A DNA stretch of 64,000 nt, taken from Minisyncoccota bacterium. Its GTDB lineage: Bacteria; Patescibacteriota; Minisyncoccia; Phycocordibacterales; UBA9973. The DNA lies in contig JBAZVG010000001.1 of the NCBI GenBank assembly GCA_041661005.1, forward strand, positions 403,307 through 467,306, read 5' to 3'. A program made the translations under genes and the position numbers. Below are positions 2,342 through 57,042 of this stretch, one piece after another (within the stretch, counting starts at the first letter, position 1; each line of letters starts with the position of its first letter). The notes under the pieces were generated by a model. That model searched no databases and was not told the origin of the DNA. It saw only the letters and a list, made by a program, of their open reading frames with translations.

Positions 2342-3034
2342 ATGCCCGACGACCAAAACACAACCCAAAATCCAATCCCCACAGAAAACTCTATTCCAGC
2401 AAGCCCCCAAGAGCCTACCGAGCCTGCCCCTGAAAACACAGCACATTCTGAACCTGCTGATGCACTTCCTGAGGCCCCAGAAAGCTCACCGAACGACTTT
2501 TCAGTGAAAAGTAATGATATACCACCCTCAAATTCTACCCTTTCAGAGCCTTTCAGTGAGCCAAAACCTGAAGAAAAATCAGCTCCAAATGAACCTAACC
2601 CAGAGTCAGTTTCTGAGCCTGTTGAAGCCCCCGAACCCAAAACGGCTCAAATACCAGTATCTGAGCCGTTGAACTCTACGAGCGAGCCGTTAGGCGAGCA
2701 AGTAGAATTCCCGGAAACTAAAACCGAGACAAAACCAACCCCCGAAGTAAAACCTGAACCAGTAGAAACTAACCCCGTTCTTGTTTCAACGAAACCCTCC
2801 CAAAAAAATTTATGGCAAAGATTTCTAAGTAAAATACAAATTGGAAAAAGAAAAAAGTTGGATCGTGTTATGACTTTATTTCTGAAAAAATCTAAAATCA
2901 CAAACGACGAAGTCGAGAAATTTCTTCACGTCTCTGACGCCACAGCAACTAGATATCTTTCAATTCTGGAAAAGGAAGGAAAAATAAAACAGAATGGAAA
3001 AACTGGAAAAGGAGTTTCGTATTCCAGAATTTAA
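2342..3034 (+). CDS. Pro/Glu/Ser-rich low-complexity protein with C-terminal winged-helix DNA-binding domain
   Basis: Repeated SEP/PEP low-complexity N-terminus. The C-terminus EVEKFLHVSDATATRYLSILEKEGKIKQNGKTGKGVSYS resembles an HTH_24/RecG-C-type winged helix. Confidence 0.45.
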   Translation: MPDDQNTTQNPIPTENSIPASPQEPTEPAPENTAHSEPADALPEAPESSPNDFSVKSNDIPPSNSTLSEPFSEPKPEEKSAPNEPNPESVSEPVEAPEPKTAQIPVSEPLNSTSEPLGEQVEFPETKTETKPTPEVKPEPVETNPVLVSTKPSQKNLWQRFLSKIQIGKRKKLDRVMTLFLKKSKITNDEVEKFLHVSDATATRYLSILEKEGKIKQNGKTGKGVSYSRI

Positions 3035-3039
3035 TTCTA

Positions 3040-3705
3040 ATCAGGGAGTGAGTTTGCGTGCACGCACGGGTGGGTGGAGTTTTTGTGTAATCACAAAAAC
3101 TCTGGGGCAAGCACGATGGCATTTGCGCCTTCGGGAATTTCCGCTAGGGTGTCTGGGCTAAAGACGAGCGCCTGAGCAATATGAAATACTAAAATCTCAT
3201 AGCGAAAGCGACATACTAAACATGGATATGAAAAACCTGAGAGGGGTTTGTGCGGTCGGGTGGGGTGAGCCCTGTTCCGCTTTGCGGAATGCGACCGCAG
3301 GGAGCACGAACCGAGACAACGCACTGGGGAGAGGAGAATCCTCTCCCCAACTAGAAGCGGGCTTTTTCTTGAACGGCTCATTTACCAGTATTTGAGCCGT
3401 TCGAAAAAGTCCCGCTACCTAGAACTGGCGCTCGTAGCCCTAGCGGAAATTCCCGAGGCGGATGCCGAGGGTGTATTCCTTTAGACTGGACACAATGATA
3501 TGATGGACGAAGGCACCGAGCATTTGTATTTGGATTTCTCCTGCGGGCAGAATTCAGAATCTCGTCAAAAGAACATTAGTCGAGGAAAAGCGGAATCCTA
3601 ATCCCTAAAATATTTGTTCCGCTTTTCCGAGTCCATTGAATTAGCACATTAGTAGAGCGTGGTAATTAGTTTAAAGTTAAGAGGCGCGCGTAGCGTGCAC
3701 ATTAG
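3040..3705. repeat. GC-rich (about 50% GC) noncoding island of nested inverted repeats and palindromes
   Basis: Outer GCGTGCACGC-containing inverted ends at 3048..3071 and 3680..3705. A 19+8-bp long-range inverted repeat at 3133..3170 and 3428..3460. A roughly 70-bp palindrome at 3352..3422. A GGGGAGAGG/CCTCTCCCC hairpin at 3311..3333. No credible ORF: 3091..3381(-) is Arg/Cys/Ser-rich junk. Confidence 0.5.
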
Positions 3706-3790
3706 GAATTTTTACTAAAATAGGTTCTAGCTGATTTTAAAAGATACTCCAGTTTTGTAGCAAAATATATTCTTCTTTTTTAAAAAAAAA

Positions 3791-4276
3791 TTATTTATTA
3801 AGTTCTATTTCTGCCCGTTCCGCTAAATCTATGAAAATAGCAACTTCTTTCAAGCTAAGTTTTCGAGGTCTTGTATCTTTAATACAAAAGACACCTATTG
3901 GCTGACGTGTTTTGTAATCAAAAAGAGCGATTCCAGCATAAAATCTTATAAATGGAGAACCCACAACCATTGGATTGTCCATGAAACGCGGGTCGTTTAA
4001 GGTATCCTCTACAATAAAAACATTTTTTGCTAATAGCGTATGCCCACAGAAAGAGACAGTCCTATCCCCTTCTTTATTTTCTACTCCGATGCATGACTTG
4101 AACCATTCACGATTAGAATCTAAGATCGCAACCATAGACATGGGAACACGTAATTTTTCCACCGCTTCACGAGTCAAAACATCAAACCGCTCTTCCGGTT
4201 TGGTATCTAAAATAGCCATTCGATGCACAGCTTCTAATCTTTTATTTTCATCATCTGGAACTGGGGCTTTTTGCAT
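3791..4276 (-). CDS. GAF domain protein (stand-alone)
   Basis: GAF-like conservation pattern (ERFDVLTR...VPMSMVAILD...RFMDNPMVVGSPFIRFYAGIAL). Confidence 0.55.
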   Translation of the reverse strand: MQKAPVPDDENKRLEAVHRMAILDTKPEERFDVLTREAVEKLRVPMSMVAILDSNREWFKSCIGVENKEGDRTVSFCGHTLLAKNVFIVEDTLNDPRFMDNPMVVGSPFIRFYAGIALFDYKTRQPIGVFCIKDTRPRKLSLKEVAIFIDLAERAEIELNK

Positions 4277-5747: not shown

Positions 5748-6992
5748 TTAACGCCAGCTGGGCCTTTCTGAAACTATAACATTATACACAGCTTTCAAGA
5801 ACCAGATGGGTGCTATAACACTATAAGTCAACATATAAAAAACAATGTAAAAACTTGGCTGAAAACGATTTTCGGCTATTTTCCGACCGACCAAAATGGA
5901 AAAAAAGACCAGAGCGTAACACACTACAAGGATCAACGATATGCCTTTGATATTGAAATAAAACCAATCAAATTTTGGAAACTGTAGTATCTCGCTAAAA
6001 CCAACCACTTGAATTTCTATAACCTTTTCAATAATAAAATTTCCAAATTTAAACATTAAAACTACAAACAAAAAAATGATGCTAAAAATAGAAATTACTC
6101 CCGATGGCAGAGTGAGTAGAGACAAAGCTCCCAACTTCGGTTTTAACAATAAATGCCTGTAATCAATCAGATTTTTAATAAACCCATAATACCAGCGTAA
6201 TCGCTGTTTATATAATTTATACAGCGAATCCGGCGGAACAGTGTAAACATAGGCATCATGACAATAATCTATGCGTAAATTGTGTTGATGCATACGTAAT
6301 GCAATCTCTCCATCTTCTGTATTGTGTGCCTTCCTGAACCCCCCTAGCCTGTCAAAAACTTCCCGTCTGTAAATAGGCAAGGTGCCTGGTGTGACATTCA
6401 GTCCGTTTAAAAGACCCAGCACTTTCTTTACAAAAATAGATCCGAGATATTCAATCTTTTGGATCTTTTGAGCGAAGTTTTTTGGATTATGAATTATTGT
6501 CGCTGGGATAACCGCCATGACATCTTTATTGTCCAAAAAACATTGCATCATCCTACTCAACGCTTGTGGATGGACAAAAGAATCAGCGTCAAGACAAGCA
6601 ACAAATTCCGTTTTTACATGTTGGAGGCCTAGATTTATTGCAGTATGTTTCCCACCATTTTCTTTATGAAAAATTGAAATATTGGGATACTTCTCAAAAC
6701 GTTTCATTATACTCCATGTATTGTCAATTGACCCATCATCAACCAGAAAAATCTTCAGCTTTTCTTTTGGATAATCAATACCGAGTAAAGAACGTACAGT
6801 TTTATAAATTGTTTTATCTTCATTCCAACAAGACACAATGACGGTTACTGTAGGATAGTGACTCAACTTAATCTTCCCATTTCTGATAGTTATCTTTTTT
6901 CTATTTTCCAAAAAGGTCACGAAGAAAAACACCTGCACATACACGGACAGAAAAATTAATACATAAAATATTATGTTGGAAATTGAAACCAT
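5748..6992 (-). CDS. Processive family-2 glycosyltransferase (chitin/cellulose/hyaluronan-synthase-like)
   Basis: GT2 motifs: VTVIVSCWNE, LVDDGSIDNT, CLDADS, QRLRWYYG (QxxRW). Multiple C-terminal TM helices. Confidence 0.7.
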   Translation of the reverse strand: MVSISNIIFYVLIFLSVYVQVFFFVTFLENRKKITIRNGKIKLSHYPTVTVIVSCWNEDKTIYKTVRSLLGIDYPKEKLKIFLVDDGSIDNTWSIMKRFEKYPNISIFHKENGGKHTAINLGLQHVKTEFVACLDADSFVHPQALSRMMQCFLDNKDVMAVIPATIIHNPKNFAQKIQKIEYLGSIFVKKVLGLLNGLNVTPGTLPIYRREVFDRLGGFRKAHNTEDGEIALRMHQHNLRIDYCHDAYVYTVPPDSLYKLYKQRLRWYYGFIKNLIDYRHLLLKPKLGALSLLTLPSGVISIFSIIFLFVVLMFKFGNFIIEKVIEIQVVGFSEILQFPKFDWFYFNIKGISLILVVCYALVFFSILVGRKIAENRFQPSFYIVFYMLTYSVIAPIWFLKAVYNVIVSERPSWR

Positions 6993-7009
6993 ATTACTTC
7001 GACAAAGAA

Positions 7010-7300
7010 TTACATGCCAACTTCCGCCTTGTTGTCAGTATCGCAAGCACCACAAGCAGCCATGCATTTTTTGCACTTGCAACCAAAAATCTTCATAACA
7101 GCCGCAATACCGACTAATATGTAGACGATTGCTTCAATAGTTGGAACAGATCCGAGAACCATCTTCACAACATTCCAATCACCATTCATCAACATCCCCA
7201 CACCCACCAAACCCCAGTTGATGCCTCCTATGATCAATAGGATTTTGCCAATCAAGGCTGGAGTGCAACAACCCTTACAACAACTCATTCCATGACACAT
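7010..7300 (-). CDS. DUF378-family small membrane protein with Cys-rich termini
   Basis: GGINWGLVGVGML core of DUF378. N-terminal MCHGMSCCKGCC and C-terminal CKCKKCMAACGACD Cys clusters. Confidence 0.5.
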   Translation of the reverse strand: MCHGMSCCKGCCTPALIGKILLIIGGINWGLVGVGMLMNGDWNVVKMVLGSVPTIEAIVYILVGIAAVMKIFGCKCKKCMAACGACDTDNKAEVGM

Positions 7301-7464
7301 ATATTTTTTCGTCTCGCGTGAGACAATTAACTAATAAAGGACCTTTTAATAATAAGTCAATTATAGCACTATTCTTTTAAAATGCTACAATGAGAGGACA
7401 TTAATAGCCTCGACATAAAGTCGAAGTTTCGACTAAAGACGTCGGAATTAACATAAAAAAATAA

Positions 7465-8226
7465 ATGGAAGAAAACAACATTGAAAATAAAGGCAACAAC
7501 AAGAATGAAAGTCAAAAACAAATAGCTGGAGCAATAATCATAGCAGGTCTCATTATAGCTGGAGCAATTTTGTTGAAAGGAAACAGAACCTCTATTCCCA
7601 CAAGTAATGGAGTTCCCGTCACATCTTTAGCTCCAATTGAAAAAAACGATAGAACTCTCGGGAATGTAAAAGCAAAAGTCATCCTCGTTTCATATGAGGA
7701 CTTTCAATGTCCATTCTGCGGAGCAATTTCTGGTTTGGCGCCCGACTCAGACGCTGTAAAGTATTTAAAACAAATTAACCAAAGCTGGACACCTCTTATG
7801 ATCGGCATCGATGAATATATAAAAAACGGGGATGTGTTGTTTGTATATAGAGATTGGGCATTTTTAGGACCGGAATCAGTAAAATCAGCCGAAGCCGCAA
7901 GGTGCGCCGGTGATCAAGGAAAATTTTGGGAATATCACGATTATCTCTATGCCCATCAAAATGGAGAAAATAAGGGGAACTTTTCCGATACTAACCTAAA
8001 GACTTTTGCAAAAAGTTTGAAATTAGACACAAATACTTTTGATCAATGTCTTGATGGTAACAAATACGCGCAAGCGGTTGCAGACTCCAAAACACAAGGA
8101 ACAGAGGCTGGAGTGACAGGCACACCAAAAGGGTTCATTCTTAAAGACGGCAAAATCGTCGGCACTATTGACGGAGCTGAATCATGGACAACTGTCAAAC
8201 CAAAGATTGATAGCGCGCTCAAATAA
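7465..8226 (+). CDS. DsbA-family thiol:disulfide oxidoreductase (membrane-anchored)
   Basis: CPFC active site in a DsbA context (YEDFQCPFCG). N-terminal TM segment. Confidence 0.65.
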   Translation: MEENNIENKGNNKNESQKQIAGAIIIAGLIIAGAILLKGNRTSIPTSNGVPVTSLAPIEKNDRTLGNVKAKVILVSYEDFQCPFCGAISGLAPDSDAVKYLKQINQSWTPLMIGIDEYIKNGDVLFVYRDWAFLGPESVKSAEAARCAGDQGKFWEYHDYLYAHQNGENKGNFSDTNLKTFAKSLKLDTNTFDQCLDGNKYAQAVADSKTQGTEAGVTGTPKGFILKDGKIVGTIDGAESWTTVKPKIDSALK

Positions 8227-46637: not shown

Positions 46638-46724
46638 TGGAGGCGTCGCATAGCGGTCTAGTGCACCACCTTGGAAAGGTGGCAGGCTCGAAAGGGTCTC
46701 GAGAGTTCAAATCTCTCCGCCTCC
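46638..46724 (+). tRNA. tRNA-Ser (anticodon GGA)
   Basis: 7-bp acceptor stem GGAGGCG/CGCCTCC, a 3-bp D stem, anticodon stem CCACC/GGTGG with loop TTGGAAA, a long variable arm and a T arm GAGAG-TTCAAAT-CTCTC. No encoded CCA. Confidence 0.8.
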
Positions 46725-46763
46725 GCAAAAATTTTACATTATCGAAAAAAATAATTCTTGTAG

Positions 46764-56869: not shown

Positions 56870-57033
56870 GCAGGGTAGTGATTCCCCTCTTGAGGGGTGG
56901 CTCGCTTACGAGACGGGGTGGAAGAATTCCCTCACCCCTTGCTTTCCCCTCTCCATTCAAAAGAATGGAGAGGGGTTGGGGAGAGGGTATCCACCTCCCT
57001 CCGACCTAGGTCGGAATACTCCTCAAGAGGAGA
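56870..57033 (+). repeat. GC-rich multi-hairpin mosaic element, copy B (expanded, intergenic pilA/pilC)
   Basis: ATTCCCCTCTTGAGGGGTGG-CTCGCTTACGAG-ACGGGGTGGA, an extra CCCCTCTCC...GGAGAGGGG module, then TCCACCTCCCTCCGACCTAGGTCGGAATACTCCTCAAGAGGAGAAT. Confidence 0.75.
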
Positions 57034-57042
57034 ATTAAAATT

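Follow-up and report, generated by a model that had tools for sequence, protein, structure and literature searches.

A putative large structured RNA joined to one arm of a recombinase-linked inverted repeat in candidate phyla radiation bacteria

The island and the described systems closest to it

Large bacterial RNAs such as ROOL, GOLLD, OLE and HEARO (omega RNA), together with the DNA inversion switches run by serine invertases, are the described systems closest to a noncoding island that we analysed in a 64-kb stretch of DNA (called here the window). The window includes rpoB, rpoC, dnaG, rpoD and ligA and is read as a chromosome piece of Candidatus Nomurabacteria (Paceibacteria), within the candidate phyla radiation (CPR). 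Within it, roughly 750 bp without a credible open reading frame (ORF) separate the stop codon of a gene for a winged helix-turn-helix (wHTH) protein (positions 2342–3034, + strand) from a GAF gene (3791–4276, − strand). An earlier note on this DNA had treated the island, which is conserved in many of these ultra-small bacteria, as one unit, but it consists of two: unit A (3043–3525), a conserved domain with covarying base pairs, and unit B (3529–3754), a repeat that occurs in other genomes as inverted pairs around variable cargo, with recombinase genes adjacent and, in one population, with the enclosed segment in both orientations. On balance we favour a composite, in which invertible cassettes linked to a recombinase would have a new structured RNA family attached at their right end.

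Like ROOL, GOLLD, OLE and HEARO RNAs, the island spans 450–700 nt, is built from many helices with optional expansion hairpins and is GC-rich in an AT-rich genome. It also shares with them a setting in accessory or mobile DNA and a function that cannot be read from the sequence. Unlike them, it matches none of their Rfam models and has no adjacent TnpB/IscB-type nuclease gene, and its domain does not stand alone but is fused to an inverted-repeat arm directly after a coding gene.

Serine-invertase switches include the G segment of phage Mu with Gin, the C segment of P1 with Cin and inverted repeats of 0.6 kb, Pin of e14 and Hin of Salmonella. The loci described here resemble the phage and prophage switches in having a segment that is bounded by inverted repeats and found in both orientations, a serine recombinase gene just outside one repeat and, as in P1, long repeats. 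However, phage invertases are proteins of about 190 amino acids that act on halves of tail-fibre genes, whereas here the protein has about 520 amino acids with Resolvase, Recombinase and zinc-ribbon domains, and the setting is one of defence and accessory operons. The enclosed segment also carries a structured domain of 480 nt, and catalysis of inversion is predicted from gene adjacency.

Islands that large serine recombinases integrate at tRNA genes offer another comparison, in that some homologues of our locus likewise have a recombinase at a tRNA gene and accessory cargo. The repeats that bound this cargo are nevertheless inverted and about 230 bp long, rather than the short direct cores of att sites, and the window has neither a recombinase gene nor an adjacent tRNA gene. 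A further parallel is autogenous control, through an operator in a regulator's own gene or RNA mimicry of the kind used by ribosomal proteins, because the same palindrome occurs here in a coding sequence and in the neighbouring element with its synonymous positions frozen. In contrast to such systems, 30% of the loci are without the protein gene, no wHTH gene lies near the site in a second family, and binding is putative.

Finally, the bridge RNA (seekRNA) of IS110 elements is also a structured noncoding domain beside a recombinase-linked mobile unit, although the recombinase there belongs to another superfamily, and we know of no serine recombinase that uses RNA. A guide-RNA role for unit A was considered and dropped, since its sole complementarity to the repeat terminus, as aligned by inspection, is 7 nt in a non-conserved stretch. 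The literature searched holds no description of the element, and the phage and plasmid collections yielded no DNA match to it.

A conserved domain with covarying base pairs

The GC content of the island is 0.46–0.54 over positions 3000–3600, as against about 0.30 in its flanks and 0.38 in the whole window (0.377), and the only ORFs on either strand are short, overlapping ones of at most 96 amino acids. Indels among homologues are not multiples of three. Thus, the earlier note was right about a GC-rich island with no plausible ORF. The minimum free energy lies below that of dinucleotide shuffles by 10.9 standard deviations on the + strand and 11.3 on the − strand.

Covariance models of Rfam 15 bear out the earlier failure to match RNase P RNA, tmRNA, signal recognition particle (SRP) RNA or 6S RNA. 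The island gives no hit at the gathering threshold, and the matches obtained at E values up to 10 are chance miRNA hairpins plus a 21-nt RNaseP_arch fragment. Likewise, the domain in 11 homologous loci gives no Rfam hit at E values up to 1. The families covered include those four as well as group I and II introns, ROOL, GOLLD, OLE and HEARO. ARAGORN reports no tmRNA in the window; its sole find is tRNA-Ser at 46639–46726.

Apart from the supposed outer ends, the inverted repeats listed in the earlier note are present, with coordinates displaced by 2–15 nt (for example, 3325–3349 in place of 3311–3333). The long-range pair joins 3131–3149 to 3438–3456 (19 nt, 100% complementary, 288 nt apart), slightly off the former placing at 3133–3170 and 3428–3460 with about 260 nt between, and its second part joins 3164–3172 to 3427–3435 (9 nt, 100% complementary). 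Inner hairpins lie at 3077–3087/3092–3102, 3325–3335/3339–3349 and 3584–3595/3617–3628, and the central palindrome occupies 3359–3412 around a core of 3371–3380/3393–3402. What had been taken for paired outer GCGTGCACGC ends resolves into a local 12-nt self-palindrome at 3055–3066 and a separate hairpin near 3684–3699; in homologues the 5′ copy pairs locally (3057–3061 with 3111–3115) and not with the 3′ end of the island.

Homologues were collected in several ways. Synteny around the GAF gene gave 17 relatives, the closest of them metagenome-assembled genomes of Nomurabacteria, and none had shared neighbours or the element, which marks the GAF gene as an unrelated neighbour. The wHTH protein family gave 1839 hits with full-length coverage, and DNA around eight of its members has a noncoding island after the gene in all eight. 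The most conserved feature of the first alignment, GAACGGCTCA-N12-TGAGCCGTTC, served as the pattern for one scan of a metagenome collection, which returned at least 120 loci; profile searches found the long element in 52 of the 120 pattern loci listed. The one palindrome-pattern hit in IMG/VR (L036; L numbers are our handles for loci) is an unrelated GC-rich hairpin. Pattern loci and protein-derived loci together gave 44 non-redundant full copies, 43 of which were aligned with MAFFT and analysed for covariation with RNAalifold.

Unit A is about 450–580 nt long in this family, and near-invariant blocks alternate along it with variable, indel-bearing stretches, the order and spacing of the blocks being the same in the 43 homologues. 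Its features in the window are as follows.

3043–3049, + strand: AGGGAGU motif at the 5′ edge of the domain, 9 nt past the stop codon; near-invariant in the 43 homologues
3057–3061 with 3111–3115, + strand: 5-bp helix CGUGC/GCACG, enclosing a conserved G-rich strand and the optional hairpin 3077–3102
3129–3150 with 3437–3458, + strand: long-range stem of 22 pairs; 98.3% of cells paired
3168–3172 with 3427–3431 (in the window 3164–3172 with 3427–3435), + strand: inner stem; 99.5% of cells paired
3202–3209, + strand: GCGAAAGC, a hairpin whose loop is of the GNRA type and which is unchanged in 42 of 43 sequences; the sole variant, GCGGAAGC, keeps the GNRA pattern
3240–3322, + strand: variable expansion segment, about 10–170 nt long depending on the homologue
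3326–3348, + strand: hairpin GGGGAGAGGA-N3-UCCUCUCCCC with near-invariant arms; 10 pairs, 99.8% of cells paired
3359–3412, + strand (arms 3371–3380 and 3393–3402): extended hairpin with site B (see below) at its tip; the flanking stem covaries and varies in length
3459–3525, + strand: conserved 3′ tail, GGCGGAUGCC GAGGGUG ... AUGAUAUGAUGRACGAAGGCAC, with highly conserved blocks that lie outside the assigned helices

RNAalifold predicts 55 pairs, of which 16 show compensatory double changes, and 98.4% of 2359 alignment cells are paired. Column shuffles give 7.1 ± 1.4 such pairs, with none of 500 shuffles reaching 16, and sliding the pairing partners gives 3–7. Similarly, the covariation score of 0.170 falls to 0.03–0.05 when partners are slid. 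Unit A therefore has what is generally looked for in a structured noncoding RNA, namely base pairs kept by compensatory changes above controls, and these are spread over at least seven separate covarying helices of 5–22 bp.

The long-range stem, which closes the domain in all 43 homologues, includes six double-change pairs (CG to AU 12 times, GC to AU 5 times, and AU to GC, UA to AU and GC to UA 3 times each). In the inner stem, CG has become UA in 16 of 43 sequences, and one subgroup has two pairs swapped for tandem G·A/A·G plus U·G. The 5-bp helix occurs in at least five compensatory variants (CGUGC/GCACG, UGCGC/GCGCA, UACGC/GCGUA, UGUGC/GCACA and UGCAC/GUGCA); because MAFFT aligned it badly, these were extracted by pattern. 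Covariation extends to the optional hairpin at 3077–3102, which has a conserved UAAU loop and is missing from about half of the homologues, and to the hairpins of the expansion segment, whose caps are UAAU, UUCG or GNRA-like loops. Double changes are rare in the GGGGAGAGGA-N3-UCCUCUCCCC hairpin, where they affect four pairs.

The structured-RNA idea of the earlier note thus stands for 3043–3525 as far as conservation and covariation are concerned, the long-range stem included, and its RNA nature and + strand are argued indirectly below. Given these features, we consider unit A a candidate for a previously uncatalogued family of large structured RNAs, set apart from those in Rfam 15; our confidence in the composite as a whole is somewhat better than even.

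Two homologues carry insertions of about 1.2–1.3 kb right after the 3′ arm of the long-range stem (equivalent to about 3457 in the window), L024 at 6090–7430 and L046 at 6477–7668. The insertion in L024 includes a transposase gene of the IS110 (DEDD) family.

A repeat arm that bounds variable cargo

The 3′ third of the island follows another pattern. Unit B corresponds to a single arm of the long inverted repeat by which gene cassettes are bracketed in homologous loci, and comprises the following parts.

3529–3754, + strand: the inverted-repeat unit (profile match in the window, E = 6e-63)
3584–3595 with 3617–3628, + strand: covarying hairpin
near 3684–3699, + strand: GC hairpin
3706–3751, + strand: AT-rich terminus, ...UAGGUUCUAGC...ACUC(C)

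An iterated profile finds this unit in at least 92 loci. At least 25 of them have two or more copies, nearly always as divergent inverted pairs 1.5–9 kb apart. Where both copies lie inside a contig they are 91–100% identical over about 207–243 nt (up to 275 nt in L032), and in the long contigs L019, L030 and L129 the arms are 98–100% identical. In L019, for example, a 234-nt inverted copy with 98% identity lies about 5.3 kb upstream, past two DNA methyltransferase genes. The inner boundary of the repeat is constant, near window position 3530, and identity between arms stops exactly at the outer ...ACTC. Numerous contigs break off within the repeat, the outcome to be expected when a repeat is longer than the assembler k-mer. 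The main hairpin of the unit (3584–3595/3617–3628) has 10 pairs, nine of them with two or more Watson–Crick types, and displays no wobble strand bias.

The cargo between the arms differs from locus to locus. It includes type I and II restriction-modification systems, GmrSD/HNH with SduA (Shedu-like), AAA_15/21 ATPases, HATPase_c_3 proteins, peptidase S49, MazF toxin, pilin, and C5 methylase with HNH. In the window, a DnaJ-like protein, two TPR proteins and an 84-amino-acid Cys-rich membrane protein are encoded upstream of the wHTH gene in one tight operon, which may be the cargo of this cassette. Searches of the window cargo and the wHTH protein with PADLOC and PHROGs returned weak generic matches only. 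The products of the two TPR genes (650–1384 and 1402–2073) have nearly the same first 40 or so residues (MDxxKDKKIITSPYYSLxxL...RGLRDL).

Known RNA motifs occur in the cargo of homologous cassettes (L019 5274–5380, L129 1682–1826 and L145 4001–4125). Each exceeds its Rfam gathering score, and they comprise a SAM riboswitch, a cobalamin riboswitch and LOOT RNA. Separately, the outer end of the repeat at L030 6425–6445 (and at L033 37–44) terminates in AAGGACTC, 6 bases before the ATG of a release-factor gene, an arrangement in which the arm would supply that gene's ribosome-binding site in either orientation.

Probable inversion and an adjacent large serine recombinase

Three groups of contigs from one population, with identical cargo, reveal the segment between the arms in both orientations. 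Specifically, L030, L031 and L034 read X′–repeat–cargo–wHTH–domain–repeat–RF, where RF is the release-factor gene, whereas L033 reads RF′–repeat–cargo and L032 reads domain–repeat–X. All four junctions expected from the two orientations are therefore represented, and they are 100% identical across the repeat.

Among genes near the element, clustering of neighbouring ORFs ranks a large serine recombinase as the commonest real neighbour after the wHTH gene; the next higher rank goes to a spurious antisense ORF from within the domain. The recombinase has Resolvase, Recombinase and Zn_ribbon_recom domains in about 510–530 amino acids, and in many loci its gene usually lies some 170–500 nt from the outer end of the repeat unit. 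This adjacency leads us to infer that the recombinase catalyses the inversion, although RecA-dependent exchange between the 230-bp repeats would give the same products.

In five of seven mapped loci the 3′ end of the recombinase gene overlaps a tRNA gene on the opposite strand (L085 11996–12067, L032 9705–9775, L147 12337–12407, L110 8220–8292 and L027 1837–1908), and in the other two the tRNA gene lies about 100–130 nt beyond. The overlap suggests either that the region is an island at a tRNA gene or that the recombinase has its site within its own 3′ end.

A second inverted repeat, of about 100–170 nt, brackets the recombinase gene (L085 10295–10410/11883–11998, L032 6429–6595/9549–9706 and L147 9387–9485/12179–12277). 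One of its arms is in the C-terminal coding region of the recombinase and the other just outside the repeat unit, and with the arms so placed the recombinase gene may also flip with its reading frame kept.

A palindrome shared with the wHTH gene

The gene that ends 9 nt before unit A is its frequent partner, and the two have a palindrome in common.

2342–3034, + strand: gene for a P/E-rich protein of 230 amino acids with a C-terminal wHTH, a frequent upstream partner of the domain
2641–2670, + strand: site A, AACGGCTCA-N12-TGAGCCGTT, inside the wHTH coding sequence; 27 of 30 positions match site B

Of 47 distinct loci, 25 have the wHTH gene immediately upstream of the domain and 33 have it within 500 nt, so that of the two flanking genes named in the earlier note the wHTH gene is a partner conserved in no more than about 70% of loci. 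The protein gives weak Pfam matches to HTH_24 and HTH_11 at residues 177–221. AlphaFold models residues 1–150 as disordered and 154–229 as a helix plus wHTH (a poor model, with a pLDDT confidence of 57.6), and the closest solved relatives are MarR-type repressors, a weak match at E = 0.03. The 150 disordered N-terminal residues are unusually conserved in the family, and the corresponding part of the gene (2342–2800) has a GC content of 0.46–0.50 with a strong skew of C over G; nucleotide-level constraint beyond site A is possible there.

Each wHTH-bearing locus examined has two copies of the palindrome ACGGCTCA-N12-TGAGCCGT, one in the coding sequence (site A) and one in unit A (site B). In the window, this confirms the near copy in the upstream gene that the earlier note had pointed out, for 27 of 30 positions are identical between 3372–3401 and 2641–2670 (BLAST within the window, E = 6e-4). 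All wHTH genes examined have site A some 300 nt past the start codon; its arms are invariant at synonymous positions, and it encodes T-A-Q-x4-E-P-L, which is conserved amid an otherwise disordered region. The arms of site B are invariant in all 43 sequences, and its spacer varies in sequence while remaining 12 nt long in all but two copies, which have 13 nt.

A variable spacer of fixed length between invariant arms is more suggestive of the DNA operator of a dimer than of an RNA hairpin recognised by a protein. The palindrome is therefore a predicted binding site for a dimeric factor, most simply the MarR-like wHTH protein.

Two other roles for the palindrome were rejected. As a recombination pair, sites A and B have central dinucleotides that match in some loci and are inverted or mismatched in others. 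A diversity-generating retroelement has against it the lack of a reverse transcriptase in the annotated flanking genes and the differences between 2641–2670 and 3372–3401 (A/T, A/T and C/T), which are not adenine-specific.

RNA, DNA and other explanations

We think it quite probable that unit A acts as RNA, transcribed from the + strand. This strand has the more stable fold in 38 of 43 homologues, with a mean advantage of 11 kcal/mol over the − strand, and GNRA and UUCG loops read correctly only on it. Moreover, in every context the domain starts 0–36 nt past a same-strand stop codon, whatever gene precedes, with the AGGGAGU motif following that stop codon each time. A count of 115 G·U against 6 A·C pairs is no proof of the + strand, since in a symmetric test the − strand prediction gathers wobble-rich extensions of its own.

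Several observations weigh against the composite reading. The 46 pairs common to the + and − strand predictions include 11 G·U and 4 A·C, which does not settle the strand. A d(GCGAAAGC) sequence also forms a stable DNA hairpin, leaving single-stranded DNA possible, and inverted DNA sites evolving in concert would look covarying too. The case for RNA is made from sequence, with folding energy, loop types and gene context pointing to the strand. Binding by the wHTH protein is weakened by the 14 of 47 loci from which its gene is missing, and by a second family (for example, L110) that has the palindrome in both repeat units with no unit A or wHTH gene nearby. Some of the invariance of site B in the metagenome set stems from the scan itself, which used the palindrome pattern; it is not only an effect of the search, however, because it is also seen in 11 lineages sampled via the protein. 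Finally, no recombinase gene was found in the window, and no left arm lies within it, the window starting 2.3 kb upstream of the wHTH gene, so that the cassette reading rests on homologues.

Could the whole 700 bp act as DNA? On this account, which we hold to be unlikely, they would form a sub-terminal arm to which proteins bind, part of a mobile or invertible element of a serine recombinase and analogous to transposon ends or the accessory arms of att sites. The inverted repeats would be paired binding sites or cruciform palindromes kept alike by concerted evolution, and there would be no functional RNA. Unit B accords with this, since it behaves as a DNA repeat with no strand bias, and so do the adjacency of recombinase genes, the resemblance of the wHTH protein to MarR-type DNA binders and the weak wobble asymmetry of the shared helices. 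The two best-conserved hairpins also bear the signature of a dimer operator, with invariant arms and a spacer that varies in sequence but little in length. Such an account nevertheless deals poorly with at least seven covarying helices that have many different compensatory variants, for double-stranded protein sites would need a change of protein specificity with each compensatory event. It is also at odds with expansion hairpins of variable length capped by UUCG, GNRA or UAAU loops, and with the consistently greater stability of the + strand.

The earlier note had offered, as an alternative to RNA, a pile-up of nested elements like miniature inverted-repeat transposable elements (MITEs), that is, small independent palindromic mobile elements inserted into each other. 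As stated this fails, because no sub-element is multi-copy in the 64-kb window: each unit is there once, and the only part of the island with a further copy in the window is the one that matches the site in the wHTH coding sequence. The recurrence claimed for the GGGGAGAGG hairpin in copy B of a mosaic element comes down to a 12-nt match at 56975–56986, within a different GC-rich hairpin cluster.

Parts of the idea survive. The 3′ third (3529–3754) is a repeat unit, paired in inverted orientation around mobile or invertible cargo in other genomes. Optional hairpin modules sit at differing positions between lineages, the palindrome module is in unit A in one family and inside the repeat unit in another, and insertions break the domain in L024 (with the IS110 transposase gene) and L046. 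Yet in 43 homologues the conserved blocks keep the same order and spacing and the domain is always closed by the long-range stem, and we regard independent insertions as very improbable.

The cluster at 56900–57040 is a second GC-rich noncoding set of hairpins, between two minus-strand genes, and consists of GGGGTGGAAGAATTCCCTCACCCC; CCCCTCTCCATTC-AAAA-GAATGGAGAGGGG; CCGACCTAGGTCGG; and CTCCTCAAGAGGAG. A 12-nt string is all that it has in common with the island, of which it is no copy.

Stable RNA genes are frequent integration sites of islands, and a divergent housekeeping RNA (RNase P RNA or tmRNA) might in principle be the integration target of the recombinase-borne islands. The string AUGCCGAGGG may resemble pseudoknot 1 of tmRNA, which neither Rfam nor ARAGORN supports; the same holds for look-alikes of diversity-generating retroelements, group II intron domain V and RNase P P4. 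Against such an origin, which we consider remote, ARAGORN finds no tmRNA, and the RNase P, tmRNA, SRP and 6S models match neither the window (E values up to 10) nor the homologues. In addition, the partial copies are inverted rather than the direct repeats that integration would leave, the domain lies inside the flippable segment and travels with variable cargo, and it is tRNA genes instead that the recombinase genes abut.

A protein-coding gene on the minus strand is barely conceivable, for although an antisense ORF family of 90–171 amino acids lies inside the domain in 20 homologous loci, the longest antisense ORF in the window (96 amino acids) is interrupted, indels of 1–2 nt are common in conserved blocks, and stretches of GC-rich DNA in an AT-rich genome are free of stop codons by chance.

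A model and its implications

If the composite reading is correct, unit A would be transcribed on the + strand as a 3′ extension of the last gene of the cassette. Its core would be a multi-helix junction closed by the 22-bp and 5–9-bp long-range stems, with expansion hairpins as optional additions. Unit B would be the right arm of an inverted repeat of about 230 bp, whose left arm in related genomes lies 1.5–9 kb upstream, past variable defence-type genes, and a large serine recombinase gene would adjoin one arm. The enclosed segment would be flipped by the recombinase or by homologous recombination between the arms and, since these are identical, the sequence formed by domain and arm would stay intact in either orientation. 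The wHTH protein is predicted to bind the palindrome and thereby exert feedback on its own gene.

As to function, our guess is that unit A is no housekeeping RNA but a module linked in cis to the cassette, which it would regulate or maintain in concert with the wHTH protein. More speculatively, and with considerable doubt, it might be a large structured RNA of a new class and a working component of those defence cassettes of CPR bacteria that serine recombinases would invert. If so, unit A might set which orientation is expressed, control expression of the recombinase or cargo, or act as an RNA cofactor or decoy with the winged-helix protein, and it would provide the first link of a large RNA to serine-recombinase biology.

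The genomes of CPR bacteria (Patescibacteria) are tiny, which makes a conserved noncoding domain of 480 nt expensive and probably functional. To our knowledge, almost no RNA biology has been described in this phylum, and unit A, if it is an RNA, would bring a further family to the few large bacterial RNAs whose function is unknown. The palindrome frozen in both a regulator gene and its neighbouring element is a regulatory link open to direct experiment. If the recombinase does flip these cassettes, a large serine recombinase would be acting, unusually, as an invertase. Interchangeable defence operons bracketed by inverted repeats of about 230 bp beside recombinase genes, with unit A at a constant place along the inner edge of the repeat, point, moreover, to a form of defence-gene turnover and phase variation that had not been described for these organisms.

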